A DNA stretch of 64,000 bases from an uncultured Methanosarcinales archaeon. GTDB lineage: Archaea; Nanobdellota; Nanobdellia; Woesearchaeales; GW2011-AR4. Both the position numbers and the translations under genes were made by a program. Shown here piece by piece: positions 2,209 through 58,821 of the stretch; position 1 is the first letter of the stretch, and each line of letters begins with the position of its first letter. The notes below the pieces were generated by a model, which had not been told where the DNA came from, ran no database searches, and saw only the letters and a list, made by a program, of their open reading frames with translations. The stretch spans positions 2,219-66,218 of the forward strand of contig CAYTKI010000002.1 of NCBI GenBank assembly GCA_964438385.1, written 5' to 3'.

Positions 2209-5200
2209 CTAGCCGCCTTTACTTGAAGAAACTGATGCGAGCTTTGCCATTTGGCCATTGGCCCCGTAATAATTTGCAATCCCTTGAGTGACTCTTCCGG
2301 CATATCTTTCCACTGCTTGCTTATATTCCGGACTATTCTTATCAAATGAGGGAACTGTCCCCTCAACAATTATCCCTCCGCTTGTTGTGGGCGCCCTATT
2401 TGCGGCATTTTGCATGGGATACCATCTCATTTGATTTGCAATTGCATTTGCGAGCGCAATCTGGTTATGGGCAATCACCCCTTCTGGGGCTTTTAATTTC
2501 TCACTGTTCCGTTCACCATGTATCTCGATAGGAGGAGTACCGGTCCTTGCAAGCTCTGAGATTTTTTTGCCATATTCATTCCAATCGGAAAAATCCTCCT
2601 GCTTAAGAATTCTGAAAGGAATCCCTTTCTCCATTAAATTTTGAGCAGTCAAGGCAACCACATCTTTGACAAACTCTGCTTCCCTAGGAGCACCTCCTAC
2701 CACACCTGGATGGATCGAATGACCTGCAACAAGAACTACGGGAGTTTCTGCGCTTATCTCCACATTATTCCTCGGTATTTCTCCTTGAATGAGCAAATCC
2801 TGCCCTCTACCAATTCTTGCATTAGGTGAGATCCCATTTCTTTCGGCCAATTCTCCAATATCTACATTAAATTTTTGAGCGACGTTTTCCAAACTCTCGC
2901 CATTTTTTACCCGATAATAATATTTGTCTTCTCCCTCTTCTCGATTAAGTGAAAACGTCCCATCATCATACGTCTTGCCAACCACCGTCTTGCGTAGCAT
3001 ATGGGCACCAACAATTTTTTTCTCCGGTGAAGGGGAGATAGCACTTGGAGATTCTTGAGCAGGTTCCGCATCAGTATTGCTTGCCTCGCTTTCTATGGGT
3101 TTTCTCTCCTCCCCCCTCAGTTGCGCCATCAGCTGAATGAGAGCATCATCTCTTTTCTTTTTAATTTCCGCATCAGCATCCGCTACCCGATCCATTTCTC
3201 TTACTTGGGCGAGCATCTCCTCAAATTTTTTTATTTTAGATGGATCACTTCCCCTTGCTTCTCTCATTCCATCAATGGCCTTTTGAGCGTCATTCAATTT
3301 TGCCCCCGCATCATTCTGCTTAATTGCTGCTGCCTGCGCTTCCTCTTCATCCCTGCTTAGCGCATCTCCTCCAACTACTCCAAGCGCCTGCACCTTTGCA
3401 CCTGCCCTTTTTTCTTCTTGTTCAACCATATTCAACTTTTTATTTAAGCTATCTAATTCCTCACTAACTTTTTGTTGAGCTTCTGAATGGGCTTTTATCC
3501 TGCGCTCAAGATCTTCCGCCTCCTTTAGAGCCTCTTGCACTCTTTCCAATGTCTGCAAAAATTGAGCCTCTCCATCTACCTTTTTTATAGCATTTTCTCT
3601 TAGAACCCTATCATTTTCAAGATCTGCAATTAATTGCTTGTTCGCCGTTATCTCCCTCTTATCGGCATCCTCTCTTTTTGCGCTTTTATCTTCTCCTGGT
3701 TTTTCTGTTTGCGCAATCCTCTCCTCATAATCTCTGACAAAATCAGGGTCCCCTCTTCCTGCGCTTTTTATTTCTGCTATCATCTTCTGTCCTTGCGCCC
3801 GCATATCTGCCATTGCCTTCCCTTTTTCTGCTTCCGCCCGTTCAAATTGCCTAAATTCCCTCTCCAGCGCAATTCCATCTTTTTGATACTTTTTTGCCAA
3901 TTCATCAGAAATACCTGCAAGAGTGGTTGCCTCATAGTACCACCTGTTGAATTCTTCCAATACTTCAGCGGAACTGCCCTCACTTGGGGAAACCCTAACA
4001 CTTTTTGTTTCAGCTGCCTGAACCGGGGGGGCCGCCTGACTCGGAGACGCCGGGACCGCCACTTCTTGCGCTGCATCATATTCTTGCCTTGGCTGATTTT
4101 CCGATTTTTTCGCTGTTTGGACCTCTGCGTCAATACTCTCACTTTGAGGGGTATTGTCTCCTACCGCGGGAATTTGAGGTTGCATAGCAGTAATATAGAT
4201 GGACTTTAATTCCAAAGGAAGAATTTGTGCAAAACTTCTCCCAACTTGTGCGACTTGAATAGTCTCGTCCTGCTTTAGCGGGAGAATGATCTGCTGTCCC
4301 ACTCTTATTTTATTTGGATTAGTTATTGAAGGATTAAGATTGGTGATATCGGCGATTGTTATTCCATTATCCCTCGCGATTTTTGTGAGCGTGTCCTCTC
4401 TCTTGACAAAATAGCTTTCACTTCCTTCAAGCTCCACTACTCTTTCAGTAGATCGCTCCACTTTTCTTGTTGAGATTTTCTCAACTTCTCCTTTTACACT
4501 GATAGTTGCTTCAGGTGTTGCATCACTTATCTGTTTATACTGTGTATTCCCATCATCCTGTTTCCAAAATTCCATCTTTGCGGATCCCTCCTCATACTCT
4601 GCAACCCTTTGGGTCACTTTTGAGGTGCTCACAATATCAACCTTTTTGAGCAAATTTCTCTCTACAGGCAGAAGAGGCTTTGCTGAAATCCCGCCTCTCA
4701 CTTCCTCTTCCGCTCCAACTCCTTGATTGATTATCCTTAAGAGATTCCCTTCCCCAAGCCGTGCCTGAAGAGAACCACTTTCTCTTGAATATGTAATCTC
4801 ATCATCAAATCCTCCGCTCTTGCCAAAATCTGAATAAATGATCCCTCTTGGCGCATTCTTGGCAACTAGAGTGAACGCCTCGAAAGGAATGTTTCCCATC
4901 CGCTCAATTTTGGTAAATGATGTCCCTTCCTGCAATCTTAACCTTCCTATCTCTTGCCCAACAGAAACCTTTCCAATGAACTCGGCATATTTTTCCTGAT
5001 TTGCCCCTTCTCCACGAAACATGGTCACTTTTCGGTTTAGAGTTTCACTTGCAACCACAATCTCAGTCGGATTTGATTGCCCAACCGATAGCCCTTCTTC
5101 ACTTGAGGCGGCAAATATATTCCCGCCAAAGGCAAACCGGCCAACTCCCCCTCCATCGTTTTTAATCAGCAGTTTTCCGCCACCTAGCTCAGAAGGGGAT

Positions 5201-5943
5201 GAAATGGATGTCAATCCTCCACGAACAGAAAAAATTACCTCCTTAAATTCATCACTCCTTGCGCCGGCCCCTCCTGGAGTTGACATAGGGAGGTATTCCA
5301 CTGCGTTCTCATTTTTTTGCAGTTCAATATGCGCCCCGTTGCCGATCTTAAGGCCGGATGGAAATAGAAGCGTGCCATCCGCAAGAAGAGCTGCTTTCTT
5401 GCCTTCTGGCAATAAGCTTTGGATATTATCAATGTTAAATGCACTCATTACTTGGTTTTGGTTTCCCCCCTTCGAGGTCTTCACTTCCCCCTCTTTCCCA
5501 TAGGAATGGAGACGCCCTCCTTGATCCTCAATACCTTTGCTTTCAAGATATTTTTTCTTGATTTCCGGGTGATTATTGAAGACCGCTGCACCAAACCCCT
5601 CTGAACTTCTCTCTCTTGCAAAATTCTCTATTCTCTTTAAGGCATCAGGATCTACCTGAGCAGGATTCGAGTTGAATGCAGCGAGCATCTTGTAGGCATT
5701 CTTGTCATTTGAAAATCCGGCAGTCCGGATGTTTGGATCCTTTAGGAGGGAGGAGTCTTTTCTAATAGCTTCAAAAGCGCTATTCGGATCTGATGTAAAC
5801 ATTCCACTTGGATTTGCCAGAAAATCCTCCTTGAATTTTTCATCATTGGATTTGCCGATGGTTTCATCTATTTCTGCCGCGAAAGCGAGAACTGGCAGCG
5901 CAAAGAGCACAATAATCATCAGAATAGCAGCCCTGTTTCTCAT
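2209..5943 (-). CDS. Secreted protein with two LysM domains, a coiled coil and a C-terminal N-acetylmuramoyl-L-alanine amidase (Amidase_3)-like domain
   Basis: Sec signal peptide ending AFA. LysM1 YFVKREDTLTKIARDNG..NPNKIRVGQQIILP; LysM2 YRVKNGESLENVAQKFNV..IGRGQDLLI. C-terminal VLVAGH..REAE..IEIH..IIVEG..GIANY follows the Amidase_3 His/Glu/His/Glu pattern. Confidence 0.82.
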   Translation of the reverse strand: MRNRAAILMIIVLFALPVLAFAAEIDETIGKSNDEKFKEDFLANPSGMFTSDPNSAFEAIRKDSSLLKDPNIRTAGFSNDKNAYKMLAAFNSNPAQVDPDALKRIENFARERSSEGFGAAVFNNHPEIKKKYLESKGIEDQGGRLHSYGKEGEVKTSKGGNQNQVMSAFNIDNIQSLLPEGKKAALLADGTLLFPSGLKIGNGAHIELQKNENAVEYLPMSTPGGAGARSDEFKEVIFSVRGGLTSISSPSELGGGKLLIKNDGGGVGRFAFGGNIFAASSEEGLSVGQSNPTEIVVASETLNRKVTMFRGEGANQEKYAEFIGKVSVGQEIGRLRLQEGTSFTKIERMGNIPFEAFTLVAKNAPRGIIYSDFGKSGGFDDEITYSRESGSLQARLGEGNLLRIINQGVGAEEEVRGGISAKPLLPVERNLLKKVDIVSTSKVTQRVAEYEEGSAKMEFWKQDDGNTQYKQISDATPEATISVKGEVEKISTRKVERSTERVVELEGSESYFVKREDTLTKIARDNGITIADITNLNPSITNPNKIRVGQQIILPLKQDETIQVAQVGRSFAQILPLELKSIYITAMQPQIPAVGDNTPQSESIDAEVQTAKKSENQPRQEYDAAQEVAVPASPSQAAPPVQAAETKSVRVSPSEGSSAEVLEEFNRWYYEATTLAGISDELAKKYQKDGIALEREFRQFERAEAEKGKAMADMRAQGQKMIAEIKSAGRGDPDFVRDYEERIAQTEKPGEDKSAKREDADKREITANKQLIADLENDRVLRENAIKKVDGEAQFLQTLERVQEALKEAEDLERRIKAHSEAQQKVSEELDSLNKKLNMVEQEEKRAGAKVQALGVVGGDALSRDEEEAQAAAIKQNDAGAKLNDAQKAIDGMREARGSDPSKIKKFEEMLAQVREMDRVADADAEIKKKRDDALIQLMAQLRGEERKPIESEASNTDAEPAQESPSAISPSPEKKIVGAHMLRKTVVGKTYDDGTFSLNREEGEDKYYYRVKNGESLENVAQKFNVDIGELAERNGISPNARIGRGQDLLIQGEIPRNNVEISAETPVVLVAGHSIHPGVVGGAPREAEFVKDVVALTAQNLMEKGIPFRILKQEDFSDWNEYGKKISELARTGTPPIEIHGERNSEKLKAPEGVIAHNQIALANAIANQMRWYPMQNAANRAPTTSGGIIVEGTVPSFDKNSPEYKQAVERYAGRVTQGIANYYGANGQMAKLASVSSSKGG

Positions 5944-14625: not shown

Positions 14626-15153
14626 TTATTGTATAGTTACCTTGGTCATCTTATCGCCAGCCCTAAGCTTCTCAACCACATCCATGCCCCCCATGACTTT
14701 CCCAAACACTGCATAGTTGCCATCAAGGAAGGGGATATCATCAAGAGTAATATAGAATTGGGATGTTGCGCTGTTCGGATCGTTAGTCCGAGCCATTGCA
14801 ACCGCTCCTTTCACGTGTGTGAGCGCAGGATGTATCTCAAGAGGGATTTCCTTCTCAGAGCCGCCCGTGCCATCTCCGTTGGGATCGCCCCCCTGGATAA
14901 CAAATCCCGGCTCGTAGCGGTGGAAAGTGAGGCCGTTGTAGAATCCCCTGCTTGCAAGCTCTATGAAATTTGCAGTCGTTATCGGCGCGTCCTTTGTGTA
15001 GAGCTCGACGGTGATTGTCCCTTTATTTGTCTCTATCGTTGCAGTTTTTTTGTCCATAGTCGTTTCCCCACCCCCCGTATTCTGGTTTGCGCATCCAAGA
15101 AGAAGGATGCAAATCGCGAGCGCCATGAGGGCTTTGATTGGTTTTATTGCCAT
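14626..15153 (-). CDS. Cyclophilin-type peptidyl-prolyl isomerase with lipoprotein signal
   Basis: [38 protein letters not shown]; lipobox ILLLGC. Confidence 0.93.
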
Positions 15154-18341: not shown

Positions 18342-18689
18342 ATGGGGGGTTCCGCAAATGTACCAAGCAAAGGATACTCTCTTTGCGTGGTTGTCCTTGA
18401 GGATGGAGGGAAGCCACAATTCCTTACTCCAGGGGATGCAATCAGTACTCTTGAGCCTAGACCTTTCTTCTGTGTGAGGGCCCATAATGAGAATGGATGC
18501 GGTGGTCTTGCAGCAGATCTTGCACAAGGCATCAGGCAGTTAGGGAAAGATACCTATACCGGTTTGAGTTCTCTTATAATGGCTGTTTATCAGCTTAATG
18601 GAGGTTCGCAATTTCCAGAAAAAAAGTATGAAGTTTTTGCCCCTAGATCTAAAGTAGAATCTCCGCAATCGTACCATCTAGCACATTAA
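18342..18689 (+). CDS. Hypothetical protein
   Basis: ORF fills the gap between two genes, with a TTTAAATA box upstream; no recognisable motif. Confidence 0.45.
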   Translation: MGGSANVPSKGYSLCVVVLEDGGKPQFLTPGDAISTLEPRPFFCVRAHNENGCGGLAADLAQGIRQLGKDTYTGLSSLIMAVYQLNGGSQFPEKKYEVFAPRSKVESPQSYHLAH

Positions 18690-28334: not shown

Positions 28335-29867
28335 ATGCTCAATTTAGGCAATGGTTGGGAATACAGTGTATTGGCCCCCGCAACAATCGCGAATCTGGGA
28401 CCATGTTTTGATGTTCTTGGAGTTGCGGTGAGCAATATTGAGGATGTTGGTTCATCTAGCTTGACTGTTCTGGGGGATGTAGTCCACATTAGGCCAGCAT
28501 CGCAAAGTCGGAGCCTTTTAACAATAACTAAAATCTATACTAAGGGAGAGGTAAATACTTCTCTCACAATGGATCCTAATCTAAATGTGGCAGGTAAAGC
28601 AGCTCTCGATGTTTTGTCAAATAACAATGGAAAAGTCCCATTAGAGATAATTTTGGAGAAAATGCCATTTTTTGGTTCTGGGATGGGGAGTTCGGCAGCA
28701 AGTGTTGTAGCTGGGGCTTATGCCACTCTAATGATGATGAAACAAATGGATAAGGCCTTAATCGCTGAAACGGTAGTGAGATGCGAAGTGGGGCAGCATC
28801 CTGATAATGTTCTGCCTGCTTTGTTTGGGGGATTTGTAGGTTCATATGGTATGGGTAATAGCAATCGAAGGTACCAATCATTAGTGGATGCTGAAATCCA
28901 GTCTTTAAAAGTTGCAGTGGAAATTGTTGGAAAAGTTGGACCTCTTGATGAGATTATCCAGGAGTTGGCAAAAATTGAATCGGGTGTGATAAGAAAGGTC
29001 TTAGAGATTTTTGAGGGGAAAGGAGAGAAACTAAGAAGGCTCAATAACCGGATGCAGAATTATAGCCTATTGATCCGAGATTTGACAGAAAGGGCACAAA
29101 GATATCTGTCGGGGTTTCAACAAGAATACTCCAAGATAAAAGAGGTGATTGATTATTTAGAGGGTCGGGCTAGTTCATTAAGAGAGGGCGGTTTTGAATA
29201 TTTTCCTTCAGTGATTGCAGAGCTTAAACGAAGGGGGATTAGGGAAATAGAAAGCGAGGTTCACCGAGCTCAATCACGGGAAGAAGGGAATATCAGGAGG
29301 GAAAGAAGGAATGAAAGGGATGCGCAAAATGGCCTGATGAGAGTCATGCAATATAAATTACAGAAAACATTGGATGGTTTTTCATCTCCGGTAGAAAAAT
29401 TGGATTATCACAGACTTCAAATATCAGAGTCAGTGTATGAGATGGTTCATTTCGTTCTTGTGAAGCCGGATACTTTTATCAGTACAGAGGAAGCGAGAAA
29501 AAGGATCAACAAATATCCTCCTCTTGGGGAGGTGGTTGCCAATTCTCAGAGTGGGATTAAGTTAGTGAGTTGTCTTTATGAAGGGGATATTAGGGGGTTT
29601 GGAGAGGCCACATGCCGGGATAAAATCGTAGAACCGGCAAGAGCCCCTCTCATATCGGGATATTACAATGTTAAAGAGGCAGCTTTAAGGGCTGGGGCGT
29701 ATGGGTTCAATATAAGCGGCTCAGGACCAACATGCTTTGCGGTAACTGATGATATTGAAAAAGCAAGGCATTTGGCGAGAGTAATGATGGATGAGTTTAG
29801 TAAAGTAGGTATGGGGAGTTCAGGGTATATTTGTAAAATTGATAGGGAAGGTGCAAGAAGGATTTAA
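28335..29867 (+). CDS. thrB: Homoserine kinase (GHMP) with a large helical insertion
   Basis: PATIANLGPCFDVLG, GSGMGSSAAS, HPDNVLPALFGG, STEEARK, ISGSGPT; about 180 extra residues between FGGF and VLVKP. Confidence 0.85.
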   Translation: MLNLGNGWEYSVLAPATIANLGPCFDVLGVAVSNIEDVGSSSLTVLGDVVHIRPASQSRSLLTITKIYTKGEVNTSLTMDPNLNVAGKAALDVLSNNNGKVPLEIILEKMPFFGSGMGSSAASVVAGAYATLMMMKQMDKALIAETVVRCEVGQHPDNVLPALFGGFVGSYGMGNSNRRYQSLVDAEIQSLKVAVEIVGKVGPLDEIIQELAKIESGVIRKVLEIFEGKGEKLRRLNNRMQNYSLLIRDLTERAQRYLSGFQQEYSKIKEVIDYLEGRASSLREGGFEYFPSVIAELKRRGIREIESEVHRAQSREEGNIRRERRNERDAQNGLMRVMQYKLQKTLDGFSSPVEKLDYHRLQISESVYEMVHFVLVKPDTFISTEEARKRINKYPPLGEVVANSQSGIKLVSCLYEGDIRGFGEATCRDKIVEPARAPLISGYYNVKEAALRAGAYGFNISGSGPTCFAVTDDIEKARHLARVMMDEFSKVGMGSSGYICKIDREGARRI

Positions 29868-54066: not shown

Positions 54067-54071
54067 CAACC

Positions 54072-54357
54072 GGCTCTGTCCCGAATGAAGGCAGCGCCCC
54101 TTCCGTGAGCGAATAAGCAACTGCATCATACAATGCGGAAGGGGAAGTCCCAAACCTTTCCTTCCCTTCGGCTCAGGGAAGAAAAGTTTTACCAATAGAA
54201 AGGGCTACGCCTACCGTTTCTTTTCCCAGGGTTTTCTTTGCCCGACCAACGGGAGGGGAAAGAAAAGGCTGACGTGGAGGGAACCGCATATCTGATTGCA
54301 ACATCCATAAGCGAGCCCAGCGCTGCCCGAAGCGTTAGCGAGATTCGGGACAGAGCC
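54072..54357. mobile_element. MITE, 286 bp
   Basis: Perfect 15-bp TIRs GGCTCTGTCCCGAAT (54072-54086) and ATTCGGGACAGAGCC (54343-54357). 9-bp direct repeat CTAGCAACC at 54063-54071 and 54358-54366. No transposase ORF. Confidence 0.9.
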
Positions 54358-54401
54358 CTAGCAACCTAAATATTTATAAATTGTTATGCAGAGGAAATTC
54401 C

Positions 54402-55190
54402 ATGAAAAAGAGGTATTTGCTCCCACTTCTCCTAGCCATGCTTCCCGCTGCATATGCGGCTGGCAATAGCGCATTCGACCCATTGGGCGTGTGGAAGGTG
54501 TTTGGCTTTGGCGCAGCGATTCTTGCCATATTTTCAATGATTGCGGTCTGCTTTGGAAGCCACATGAGCGAAGCAAGGAAAAAATTCCTCTTCGTCTTCA
54601 CTGCCTTCTGTGTCATCGCAGTAACGGCGTATTTCATCATAACGACAGTAGCCCTCAATCTTTCTTCATCAACCAAGGGACCTATCCACTGGCACGCGGA
54701 TTTTGAGATATACAAGTGCGGGCAGCGCCTTGAACTGGCTGATCCGAAAGGGATGTCAAACCGGGTTGGCTCCTCGGTGTTCCATGGGCACAATGACGAC
54801 CGCATCCATGTCGAGGGCCCTGTGCTCTTGCCTGAGCATGTGAATGTACAGGAGTTCATCGAAGTTATCGGTGGAAAAATGACTTCTGATGCCTTGGGCA
54901 TTCCAACAGATGGCGGCATGGTCGAGATGGCAAATGGGCAGCAATGTAATGGCCTTCCCTCAGAGCTTCAGGTTTTTCTGATGAAAGTGGAAAACCCAGG
55001 AGATCAGGGGGAATGGCGCTACACGCAAACAAAGCTCTATTCTTTCATTGGGTATGTCCTCTCCCCGTATGCGCAGGTGCCACCTGGAGATTGCATCATC
55101 ATCGAGTTTGGTCCCACGAAAGAAAAGACAGAGCACTTGTGCGAGACTTTTGAGCTTGCTAAGAAAAGAGGTGAGCTTAGTGGCGGTTGA
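54402..55190 (+). CDS. Membrane-anchored His-rich putative metal-binding protein
   Basis: Signal peptide and TM segments, then IHWHADFEIYKCG and FHGHNDDRIHVEG. Confidence 0.75.
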   Translation: MKKRYLLPLLLAMLPAAYAAGNSAFDPLGVWKVFGFGAAILAIFSMIAVCFGSHMSEARKKFLFVFTAFCVIAVTAYFIITTVALNLSSSTKGPIHWHADFEIYKCGQRLELADPKGMSNRVGSSVFHGHNDDRIHVEGPVLLPEHVNVQEFIEVIGGKMTSDALGIPTDGGMVEMANGQQCNGLPSELQVFLMKVENPGDQGEWRYTQTKLYSFIGYVLSPYAQVPPGDCIIIEFGPTKEKTEHLCETFELAKKRGELSGG

Positions 55191-55887
55191 ATCCTACATT
55201 CCAACGCTTGGAATCGTCACCATCACCGGGCTGATTGACTCCATAAATCCGTGCGCGATTGGAGTTCTTATCCTCCTTGCGTCGATTCTCATTGCGATGA
55301 AATCAAAAAGGGAGCTTTTGCTCTATGGCTTTCTCTACATCTTCGCCATCTTCATCACGTATATTCTCGCAGGGCTTGGCATCCTCTATTTCTTTAACGT
55401 CATTCCCCTTGCGGTGAGCGAGTATATCTCAATTGTGGTTGGGGCAATCATTGTAGGCGCAGGGCTCATTGAGATTAAGGATTTTTTCTGGTACGGAGAG
55501 GGTATCTCACTTGCGATTTCGCCAAAGAGGGCAAAGCAGATCCACGAGATGACGCGAAGGGTTTCGCTTCCCGGCATATTGATCCTTGGCGTCTTTGTTG
55601 CGGCGGTTGAATTGCCCTGCACAGGAGCACCCTATATGGCGATACTCCTTGTCCTCTCGCAGAACTTTGACTTTGCAGCAGCGCTCATGCTGGTATGGTA
55701 CAATATCCTCTTCATCACGCCCCTCATCGTGATTTTGATGCTAATCTACAGCGGCACAAAAATACAGGAAGTCAAGCGCTGGAAGATGCATAATCGTGCA
55801 GCCATGCGCTTAACAATTGGTATCACCCTCATTGTGCTGGGATGGATGCTCATCTTAATCGCAAACGGAACCATAAATCTCGCATAG
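55180..55887 (+). CDS. CcdA/DsbD-like transmembrane electron transporter
   Basis: DSINPCAIGVL and ELPCTGAPY conserved Pro-Cys pair; GAGGTGA RBS. Confidence 0.85.
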   Translation: MAVESYIPTLGIVTITGLIDSINPCAIGVLILLASILIAMKSKRELLLYGFLYIFAIFITYILAGLGILYFFNVIPLAVSEYISIVVGAIIVGAGLIEIKDFFWYGEGISLAISPKRAKQIHEMTRRVSLPGILILGVFVAAVELPCTGAPYMAILLVLSQNFDFAAALMLVWYNILFITPLIVILMLIYSGTKIQEVKRWKMHNRAAMRLTIGITLIVLGWMLILIANGTINLA

Positions 55888-56522: not shown

Positions 56523-56735
56523 ATGAACTACAAACTAATCATTCTGATGATGCTAATTGTTGGCGTCCTGATCGCAGGATGCGCATCAAATAGCCCTCCG
56601 TCGGGCTATGCCGCCTATGGCGCCCAGGGAGGGCAGGAGCAGCAGAAGTATGTTGGCGGCGGATGCGGCCTTGCAGCGGATGATGCAGGCGATTCGGCAG
56701 AAGTTGTGAAGGGCGCCCTTGCAGCAGCTGCCTGA
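56523..56735 (+). CDS. Small lipoprotein with GGGCG motif
   Basis: GGAAGGTG RBS; lipobox LIAGC; YVGGGCG. Confidence 0.72.
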   Translation: MNYKLIILMMLIVGVLIAGCASNSPPSGYAAYGAQGGQEQQKYVGGGCGLAADDAGDSAEVVKGALAAAA

Positions 56736-56742
56736 GCCGCAC

Positions 56743-57201
56743 ATGGGCATAAGCAGAAAAGAGCGCAAGCAGTTGCAGCGTGAAGAGCGCGCAGGCAGTT
56801 CTTCTCTAGGTGAAAATTCTTCCTCAATCGCCCCAGCTGAGCCAAAAAAAAGCAAAGTGTGGCTCTATGCCGGAATCGGCGTGGGAATAGTGCTCCTCAT
56901 TGCGGCAGGCGTTGCCGGCTCTTATTTCTTCACACCAGGACCATATGATGATTTTGCCAAGTGCCTAAGCGAGAAAGGGGCGCAGATGTATGGCGCTATG
57001 GGGTGGTGCCAGTACACCCAAGGGCAGAAAGCCATGTTTGGAAAGTCTTTTACCAAAATAAACTACCATGAATTTGGGGAATTTCCAAAGGACATGGGAG
57101 AAATAAAGGTGACCCCAACGTGGATAATTAATGGCAAGGCCTATCCCAACACGCAGTCATTTGATGATCTCGCGCAGGCAACAGGATGCCCCCTCCCATG
57201 A
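56743..57201 (+). CDS. Membrane-anchored thioredoxin-like protein (VKOR-associated Trx type)
   Basis: DDFAKCLSEKGAQMYGAMGWCQYTQGQK.MFG, and the PTWIING cis-Pro motif. Confidence 0.75.
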   Translation: MGISRKERKQLQREERAGSSSLGENSSSIAPAEPKKSKVWLYAGIGVGIVLLIAAGVAGSYFFTPGPYDDFAKCLSEKGAQMYGAMGWCQYTQGQKAMFGKSFTKINYHEFGEFPKDMGEIKVTPTWIINGKAYPNTQSFDDLAQATGCPLP

Positions 57202-58031
57202 CCGCGAAAAAAAAGATGGACGCAAAGGGGAACGGAGTGCTGCCCTCATTCTGGGCCGAAATCAGAAATGGCAGGAAGGCAATTGCCGCCATGTTTTTAT
57301 TGGATGCGGCATTTGTCATGGCGTTGGTTTTGCTAGGCACTTTGATTGGAGAGCTAATTCCCTCGCTGAACGCATCTTCCCTAATGGCAGTTCCCTCAAG
57401 CGCTATTTGGACGGCACTTTCGGTGCTGCTCATTTATTTTTTCCTCGTGATGCTCTTCTATTCGTTTATCAAGCACATCGTGCTGCACTATGTGCGATCC
57501 TTCTTTGTCCCATCAATCCTTGATTTTGGCCGCTTTTGGAGGTTTTATGCACTCAATCTGTGCCTCTTTGCCATCTTCGGGATACTAATTGCGATTTTTG
57601 CCTATTTCATCGTGGCAGTAAAGCAGCCCTACGCGGTTTGGGCATTTCTCATCCTCATCATCCCTTATTACGCGGTGTTCTTTATCGTGCTTCACGCCTC
57701 ACAGAGCTGCTTCCATGCAAGGGGCAGAGGAATTTTCCATTCGCTTGCGTATGGATTCTCCTCGATTGGTAAGGTGCTCACTTGTGGCAGAGTAATCGCC
57801 AAAATCATCGCGGTTGTTGTTTTATTGATCCTTCTATTGCAGATGTATCTGTACTTCACACTCCGAACAGGCCTCCTTGATGCATTCTATGCTTCGCTCT
57901 ATTATCTCTTCTTCGCTACAGTCGGGAGCAGTATTGGCCTCATCATTGCTTACATCCTATCTTTTATTGGCCGCATCGGCTTCTATGCTGCAGCACTGAA
58001 GGGAGATCGCGATGTTTCTCCACAACATTGA
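57198..58031 (+). CDS. Polytopic membrane protein
   Basis: About 6 TM segments; ATGA-coupled to the upstream gene. Confidence 0.72.
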   Translation: MTAKKKMDAKGNGVLPSFWAEIRNGRKAIAAMFLLDAAFVMALVLLGTLIGELIPSLNASSLMAVPSSAIWTALSVLLIYFFLVMLFYSFIKHIVLHYVRSFFVPSILDFGRFWRFYALNLCLFAIFGILIAIFAYFIVAVKQPYAVWAFLILIIPYYAVFFIVLHASQSCFHARGRGIFHSLAYGFSSIGKVLTCGRVIAKIIAVVVLLILLLQMYLYFTLRTGLLDAFYASLYYLFFATVGSSIGLIIAYILSFIGRIGFYAAALKGDRDVSPQH

Positions 58032-58821
58032 CCCGGTAATTTTTTCTCTAGGTCCTCTCTCAGTCCGCTATTATGGCCTTTTCTACGCCCTAGGGTTTGT
58101 CATCGCGTATTTCCTCATCTATGCTCTTGCGAGGAGAAAAGGATTGGGATTGAGTAGGGATGATGTCGGTGATTGTATCTTTTCCTTGGTTATTGGGGTT
58201 GTCATTGGCGCGAGGCTCTTTTATGTGCTGTCCTACAACCTTCCTTTTTACCTCTCAAATCCTCTGGAGATTTTTGCGCTCTGGCGCGGCGGCCTCTCCT
58301 TTCACGGCGGGCTCATTGGGGGAATAGCGGCAACTTTCTATTTTTGTAGGAATAAAAAGCTCAGGTTCTATGATATCGCGGACATTGCGGCAATTCCCTT
58401 GGCCCTTGGGCTCGCATTGGGGAGAATCGGCAATTTCATCAATGGCGAGCTCTATGGCCGCATGACAACTCTTCCTCTCTGCATTGACTACTCAAAAAAC
58501 CAATACATCGGCCAGGTTGTCGAGGGGTGCAGGCACGCATCACAGTTGTATGAGTCGTTCTACAGTCTTGTCATTTTCACTATTCTTCTCTCCCTCTTTC
58601 TCTCAAAAAAGGAATTGCCAAAAGGCATGCTCACCTGGCTCTTTGTCGCAATGTATGGCTTCTTTCGCACCGCAACGGAGTTTTTCAGGCAGCCCGACGC
58701 GCAGCTGGGTTTTCTCTTCGGCGGATTGACCATGGGGCAGCTCCTGAGCATTCCGATGTTTGTAATTGGCAGTTATATAGTTTGGAGGATTGTAAAAACT
58801 ATTAAATACTCTTCTCAATAG
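58012..58821 (+). CDS. lgt: Prolipoprotein diacylglyceryl transferase
   Basis: RYYGL, GARLFYV, GGLSFHGG, GRIGNFINGELYGR, RHASQLYE, FR..TEFFRQPD, MGQLLSIP. Confidence 0.95.
   Translation: MFLHNIDPVIFSLGPLSVRYYGLFYALGFVIAYFLIYALARRKGLGLSRDDVGDCIFSLVIGVVIGARLFYVLSYNLPFYLSNPLEIFALWRGGLSFHGGLIGGIAATFYFCRNKKLRFYDIADIAAIPLALGLALGRIGNFINGELYGRMTTLPLCIDYSKNQYIGQVVEGCRHASQLYESFYSLVIFTILLSLFLSKKELPKGMLTWLFVAMYGFFRTATEFFRQPDAQLGFLFGGLTMGQLLSIPMFVIGSYIVWRIVKTIKYSSQ

Follow-up and report, generated by a model that had tools for sequence, protein, structure and literature searches.

Bacterial Lgt, the prolipoprotein diacylglyceryl transferase, is stereo- and head-group-specific for phosphatidylglycerol, its native donor. 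A 2026 study defines the Lgt motifs H103GGL and G142-R-L-G-N-F-I-N-G-E-L-W and lists six residues (Y26, H103, R143, N146, G154 and R239) as absolutely required in E. coli (PMC13251419). Archaea are described in two recent specialist papers as having neither Lgt nor Lsp homologues; the 2026 study calls Lgt 'absent from archaea', a statement drawn from a February 2021 set of RefSeq genomes examined for PF01790, and a paper on bacterial systems in DPANN archaea makes no mention of lipoproteins (PMC8204110). Full-text searches of a literature library that paired the lineage names DPANN and Woesearchaeota with terms for Lgt and Lsp turned up no paper discussing these genes; the NCBI and JGI pipelines already annotate archaeal Lgt/LspA genes. 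Here we describe an lgt gene (58012-58821, + strand) in a 64,000-nucleotide stretch of contig CAYTKI010000002.1 (positions 2,219 to 66,218 of the contig, assembly GCA_964438385.1), referred to as a whole as the window, whose host is a tiny, uncultured DPANN archaeon of the Woesearchaeota type (GTDB Nanoarchaeota/Nanobdellota). The combined analysis makes it likely, in our judgement, that this organism has a working Lgt and LspA lipoprotein pathway, acquired once from bacteria and supplied with phosphatidylglycerol of the cell's own making.

The lgt open reading frame (ORF) is full length, encoding 269 residues from ATG to stop. It matches the Pfam LGT family PF01790 with 254.4 bits (cut-off 24.9) over model positions 1-239 of 240, the NCBIfam equivalog model for lgt, TIGR00544, with 230.8 bits (cut-off 118.9), and the E. 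coli Lgt structure 5AZB with E=3.6e-56. The initial annotation had seen all Lgt signature motifs in the translation, and they are indeed there, FHGGL at residues 97-101 and the signature GRIGNFINGELYG at residues 137-149. The E. coli residues Y26, H103, R143, N146, G154 and R239 correspond to Y21, H98, R138, N141, G149 and R219 of the archaeal protein, and these six positions are kept in 100% of 46 archaeal homologues which are otherwise 40-63% identical to the query. Lgt is a polytopic membrane protein with seven transmembrane helices (TM); a simple hydropathy scan of the archaeal sequence gives five strong segments, and two weaker ones would correspond, by alignment, to TM3 and TM6 of the E. 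coli protein. Identity to the 120 best homologues in the database is 58-70%, and all the named ones among them are labelled Woesearchaeota or Nanoarchaeota. The gene encodes a genuine and apparently active bacterial-type Lgt in an archaeon; this is a known family in an unexpected domain of life, not a new mechanism.

The partner enzyme is encoded in the same genome, as the initial annotation had proposed to check. LspA (contig C5, 32838-33320) scores 135 bits against PF01252 and 124 bits against TIGR00077 (cut-off 74), and both its catalytic aspartate motifs, GNLIDR and FNVADS, align to the solved structures 6RYO and 5DIR. Candidate substrates were sought in six-frame ORFs genome-wide by a strict scan for a signal-peptide-like N-terminus, the pattern [LVI]x[GAS]X and a following polar stretch. 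Cysteine is the commonest residue at the +1 position of this pattern, occurring in 21 of 136 cases (15%) compared with 1.26% cysteine in the proteome, an enrichment of about 12-fold, and some 18 of the 21 are textbook lipoproteins, with termini such as ...LIAGCSQQ and ...LLTGCGGP. Both of the lipobox proteins that had been pointed out in the window are real (Table 1), one of them a cyclophilin at genome coordinates C2:16844-17371. In the pathway we propose by homology with bacteria, proteins whose N-terminal signal peptide closes with a lipobox ([LVI][ASTVI][GAS]C) would be exported, Lgt would take the diacylglyceryl group from a lipid of the phosphatidylglycerol type and join it to the lipobox cysteine in thioether linkage, and LspA would then cleave the signal peptide before the lipidated cysteine. 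The gene might instead be an inactive relic, or have taken on a function unrelated to lipoproteins, given that some divergent bacterial Lgt subgroups without R143/R239 may act differently (PMC13251419). We find this very improbable in the face of full conservation of the essential residues among such divergent archaeal sequences, the co-occurrence of Lgt with LspA throughout the phylum, and the genuine lipobox substrates in the genome.

The distribution of the two enzymes was analysed in 401 genomes of the same GTDB phylum, each at least 90% complete, with ten bacteria and four model archaea as controls. Lgt is present in 337 of the 401 genomes (84%) and in 236 of 281 genera, single-contig genomes included, and LspA in 336. 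All ten bacterial controls were positive for Lgt and none of the four archaeal ones, in agreement with the earlier statement that classical model archaea lack the enzyme. Within the window's order 13 genomes have no Lgt and 14 no LspA, and as only one lacks both, the gaps are probably a matter of incomplete data. Elsewhere in the class several families have neither gene. Lgt and LspA are core genes of a large archaeal lineage.

Phylogeny, also suggested in the initial annotation, shows archaeal Lgt to be monophyletic, with members of the candidate phyla radiation (CPR) as its nearest named neighbours. Trees were built with FastTree (199 sequences) and with IQ-TREE under LG+C20 PMSF (88 sequences); a sample of bacterial lgt loci (pattern TEFFRQPD) biased to Gammaproteobacteria served as outgroup only. 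In both trees a branch (SH-like 91-99; SH-aLRT 88, with 30 named archaeal and 19 named bacterial sequences) sets all named archaeal sequences opposite all named bacterial ones, and the named members inside the archaeal clade are Woesearchaeota or Nanoarchaeota. Nearest among the named outsiders are two CPR sequences, one of Peregrinibacteria as sister with moderate support (80-91) and one of Parcubacteria close by, together with a Manganitrophaceae and a Sericytochromatia sequence. To our knowledge Lgt is essentially universal in bacteria, and since the archaeal sequences form one clade the most economical and likeliest history would be one early transfer from a bacterium to an archaeon followed by vertical descent. 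The lgt/lspA pair would then have been gained once by the ancestor of the order and much of the class and inherited vertically since, perhaps from CPR-like bacteria; organism names were available for only about a quarter of the 30 neighbour representatives looked up.

Bacterial contamination of an archaeal bin, or a chimeric contig, would be the trivial explanation of such a gene, and the genome is indeed a metagenome-assembled draft in 37 contigs (1.32 Mb, 98.5% complete, 0.96% contamination). Its small-subunit ribosomal RNA is archaeal (1422 bits), and the lgt contig itself carries archaeal markers inside the window, namely the replication factor C large subunit (378 bits, above cut-off), ribosomal protein S3Ae and HerA/Mre11, in a sequence of even G+C content. 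In each of two separate studies a Logan contig (56397-60813 and 56397-59435) reproduces the sequence with 0 differences and at flat depth, covering lgt together with its upstream neighbour, which we call X, and the downstream genes, so that the chimeric join which the initial annotation had named as grounds for refutation is contradicted by two independent assemblies. Moreover the gene recurs in 337 of 401 relatives, single-contig genomes among them, the archaeal Lgt sequences are monophyletic, and X is conserved at archaeal loci only. An artefact was rejected on these combined grounds, and we give it practically no weight.

One structural element of the protein departs from the E. coli enzyme. 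Its external head loop, which links the signature motif to the helix that follows, has 24 residues (residues 150-173, window 58459-58530), within the range of 16-25 (median 17) seen in 44 archaeal homologues; it measures 19 residues in the Parcubacteria sequence and about 40 in gammaproteobacterial loci. Because bacterial Lgt varies in its head and arm domains (PMC13251419), and because the Parcubacteria loop is short too, the short head loop is within-family variation and no ground for excluding the archaeal protein from Lgt. In the query's subclade the loop contains two cysteines (W-C...G-C), which across the archaeal homologues are either jointly present or jointly absent, and this joint appearance and disappearance suggests that they form a disulfide. 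Just upstream of this lgt with its cysteine pair lie genes for a CcdA/DsbD-like and a thioredoxin-like protein (Table 1).

The identity of the donor lipid bears directly on what these membranes are made of, and the genome was examined for both archaeal and bacterial routes. GGGPS is absent, as it is from 399 of the 401 phylum relatives, and the two relatives in which it is convincing are both Lgt-negative. The only UbiA-family gene is MenA-like (TIGR00751 129 bits, compared with 30 bits for the DGGGPS model) and stands beside a polyprenyl synthase. Archaeal ether-lipid synthesis in this genome was rejected on these two counts, and because GGGPS is missing here and in nearly all relatives an ether lipid could only be had by scavenging.

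Genes for acyl lipids and their head groups were found, and the supposition in the initial annotation that the organism might make no lipids, as in many DPANN, fails here. On contig C11 (105410-118388) a fatty-acid cassette without acyl carrier protein (ACP) or KAS is followed by a fatty-acid desaturase, GpsA (389 bits) and two tandem PlsC-type acyltransferases, with archaeal RadA immediately after. The cassette comprises a FabA/FabZ-like dehydratase, two thiolases, a DUF362 fusion, FabG-like reductases and a CoA-transferase, as well as a fusion of a methyltransferase with a short-chain dehydrogenase/reductase. A head-group cluster on contig C27 (22309-26135) contains a CarS-like cytidylyltransferase (22309-22893), homologous to CDP-archaeol synthase of the CarS type (143 bits), two ORFs each with two fused CDP-alcohol phosphatidyltransferase domains, of which one passes the pgsA model (TIGR00560, 195 bits) and the other is PssA-like, and a phosphatidylserine decarboxylase, Psd. 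A CarS-type enzyme in a genome with GpsA and PlsC and without GGGPS or DGGGPS is a biochemical puzzle in its own right. All five sampled genomes of the window's family encode GpsA/PlsC-type enzymes, and sporadic GpsA and PlsC have been noted in DPANN before (Coleman et al. 2019). With the fatty-acid cassette, GpsA, PlsC-type, CarS-like and PgsA-like genes all present, our best guess for the simplest donor in this genome is self-made acyl phosphatidylglycerol on a glycerol-3-phosphate backbone, for which the route would run from the cassette through GpsA, the two acyltransferases and the CarS-like cytidylyltransferase to the PgsA-like enzyme.

The archaeal Lgt clade could alternatively have been retooled to take archaetidylglycerol, an archaeal ether lipid built on glycerol 1-phosphate, and to attach archaeol as haloarchaeal AliA does. 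The host is after all an archaeon with a CarS-type CDP-archaeol synthase homologue, the head loop is unlike that of E. coli, haloarchaeal lipoproteins bear diphytanylglyceryl (PMC12462473), and an adaptation to archaeal ether lipids had been raised at the outset. Such a donor is nevertheless hard to reconcile with a genome that encodes neither GGGPS nor DGGGPS, with the near-complete absence of GGGPS from the phylum and with the lack of Lgt in the two relatives that do have it. Nor does the protein look retooled: the residues corresponding to E. coli R143 and R239, which position the phosphatidylglycerol phosphate, are unchanged along with the other essential residues, and its nearest relatives are ordinary bacterial Lgt. 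We consider a switch to ether lipid distinctly improbable.

Several observations weigh against the proposal of an active enzyme of single bacterial origin that uses home-made phosphatidylglycerol. In the lipid pathway both PlsC-type proteins score below the TIGR00530 cut-off, PlsY is absent from the genome, and in place of CdsA the activating enzyme belongs to the CarS type of archaea. Characterised CarS strongly prefers digeranylgeranylglyceryl phosphate (DGGGP) over phosphatidic acid (PMC9385802), and the route to self-made phosphatidylglycerol for this reason includes a putative step. A crude motif scan for glycerol-1-phosphate dehydrogenase (GGGxx[ILVMT]D in ORFs of 300-430 residues) came back empty, which is not a valid test of its absence. 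Across the phylum PlsC-type genes are found in only about a quarter of Lgt-bearing relatives. The head loop falls well short of its E. coli length and substrate handling may differ, no RNA run contains the lgt gene, and in the trees support is moderate and most of the neighbouring sequences are unnamed metagenome proteins.

The phylum-wide figures have a consequence of their own. PlsC-type genes occur in 102 of the 401 genomes, and about 94 of these 102 are Lgt-positive compared with 84% overall, a by-eye comparison indicating a weak correlation. The idea that Lgt tracks a cell's own acyl-lipid synthesis across the phylum was rejected on this basis, and, with only a quarter of the Lgt-bearing relatives having PlsC-type genes, Lgt is independent of the PlsC pathway at this scale. 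Core-lipid synthesis is therefore not recognisable in most Lgt-bearing relatives, and these must get their lipid from another source. Uptake of lipid from a bacterial host, which the initial annotation had suggested for the present organism should it make no lipids, is thus plausible for many of its relatives and is not needed here, where the cell has lipid genes of its own. If it did operate here, Lgt would be active on bacterial phosphatidylglycerol scavenged from a host or partner. Bacterial hosts and modified bacterial-like lipids have been proposed for Woesearchaeota (PMC8204110, PMC11868695), GGGPS and PlsC-type genes are both missing from the majority of Lgt-positive relatives, and the window encodes a giant protein of 1244 residues (2209-5943, - strand) in which Pfam identifies two LysM (peptidoglycan-binding) domains. 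This last had been read as a LysM-amidase; the LysM part stands, and Pfam recognises no catalytic amidase domain. Set against these points are the GpsA/PlsC-type enzymes of this genome and of every sampled member of its family, the fatty-acid cassette, a full head-group set and the fact that no host is known. For the organism studied here we think scavenging unlikely, and self-made phosphatidylglycerol remains our preferred donor.

The strict conservation of Lgt provides an independent clue to the membrane lipids of these uncultivated archaea, because the bacterial enzyme is so specific in stereochemistry and head group, and which lipids these are matters to DPANN host biology as well as to the debate over the 'lipid divide'. 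A wider proposition, which we put forward tentatively and hold to be possible rather than probable, is that Woesearchaeota-type membranes contain ester-linked, bacterial-type phosphatidylglycerol on glycerol-3-phosphate, self-made by a hybrid route in lineages like the present one and scavenged in others, and serve a chemically bacterial Lgt and LspA pathway. The hybrid route would start from fatty-acid synthesis without ACP and go on through GpsA, two PlsC-type acyltransferases and a CarS-like enzyme that had changed its substrate to phosphatidic acid, to end with PgsA, and in this subclade X (57186-58031) would be a new, archaea-specific membrane partner. Were this correct, a whole species-rich archaeal order would stand on the bacterial side of the 'lipid divide', with near-universal Lgt as its genomic marker. 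The archaeal Lgt can also be cloned, which makes its preference among donors accessible to assay, for ester versus ether lipids and for glycerol-3-phosphate versus glycerol-1-phosphate backbones.

The genes around lgt are listed in Table 1. Because the end of X overlaps the lgt start by 20 nt, the two are probably co-translated as one operon. X has no Pfam family, a word-index search found no homologues, and its AlphaFold2 model is of low confidence (pLDDT 63). With a hidden Markov model profile built from the X alignment, X was detected as the immediate upstream neighbour of lgt at 11 archaeal loci, and at none of 64 bacterial lgt loci does the profile find X beside lgt; X may be a lineage-specific partner of Lgt. 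The CcdA/DsbD-like and thioredoxin-like genes are upstream of lgt and co-oriented with it, and for each a functional tie to lgt is uncertain.

Table 1. Genes at and around the archaeal lgt locus and lipobox-bearing candidate substrates in the window.
Feature	Coordinates	Strand	Evidence and remarks
lgt, prolipoprotein diacylglyceryl transferase	58012..58821	+	PF01790, TIGR00544, 5AZB, invariant essential residues
Membrane protein X, 281 aa, ~6 helices	57186..58031	+	stop overlaps lgt start by 20 nt
Membrane-anchored thioredoxin-like protein	56719..57201	+	Thioredoxin_4 E=0.0048, weak, below curated cut-off
Small predicted lipoprotein, 70 aa	56523..56735	+	signal peptide ending LIAG/C (cleavage predicted before C), polar linker; candidate Lgt/LspA substrate
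CcdA/DsbD-like thiol-disulfide membrane carrier	55048..55887	+	DsbD_TM 28.6 bits, SfLAP 34.9 bits
Cyclophilin-type peptidyl-prolyl isomerase	14626..15153	-	Pro_isomerase 168 bits, lipobox ILLLG/C; candidate Lgt/LspA substrate

Elsewhere in the window three further features were observed. At 54070-54360 public assemblies break, depth is 4-6x that of the flanks, alternative joints skip 131 and 237 bases and there are many loose ends, one of them tRNA-like, so that the segment looks like a repeat or mobile-element boundary. A homoserine kinase of the GHMP family (28335-29867, + strand, 510 residues) has an insertion of about 190 residues between the N-terminal (~11-171) and C-terminal (359-507) GHMP parts. 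A bacterial-type aspartyl-tRNA synthetase of 740 residues (18686-20908, - strand) has a GAD domain and carries an extra C-terminal YbaK-like aminoacyl-tRNA editing domain.

Compared with the best described system, that of E. coli (5AZB/5AZC), the archaeal Lgt can be aligned over its full length, is about 45% identical to the enterobacterial enzymes, and shares HGGL and the G-R-x-G-N-F-x-N-G-E-L-x-G signature as well as residues equivalent to Y235, E243 and D129. It differs in that its host is an archaeon, in having a 24-residue loop where E. coli has a periplasmic head domain of about 40 residues, and in the apparent translational coupling of its gene to X, which was seen beside archaeal lgt only, 64 bacterial loci having been checked. 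The archaeal LspA likewise retains both catalytic aspartate motifs of bacterial signal peptidase II (6RYO, 5DIR), but lspA lies on another contig and forms no operon with lgt. The CPR (Patescibacteria) enzymes, Parcubacteria MBI4117571.1 and Peregrinibacteria PIS32076.1, are the nearest named bacterial neighbours and resemble the archaeal protein in the short head loop of the Parcubacteria sequence (19 residues), and their hosts resemble these archaea in being ultra-small with reduced lipid synthesis; the archaeal sequences nonetheless form a clade of their own (SH-aLRT 88). Haloferax volcanii AliA/AliB (arCOG02177/02178; PMC12462473, PMC13631571) provide the functional parallel within archaea, in that a lipid is put on the lipobox cysteine of exported archaeal proteins. 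AliA, however, resembles PF01790 only marginally (the paper gives an HHpred probability of 29%) and attaches archaeol, whereas the Lgt described here is an unambiguous member of PF01790.

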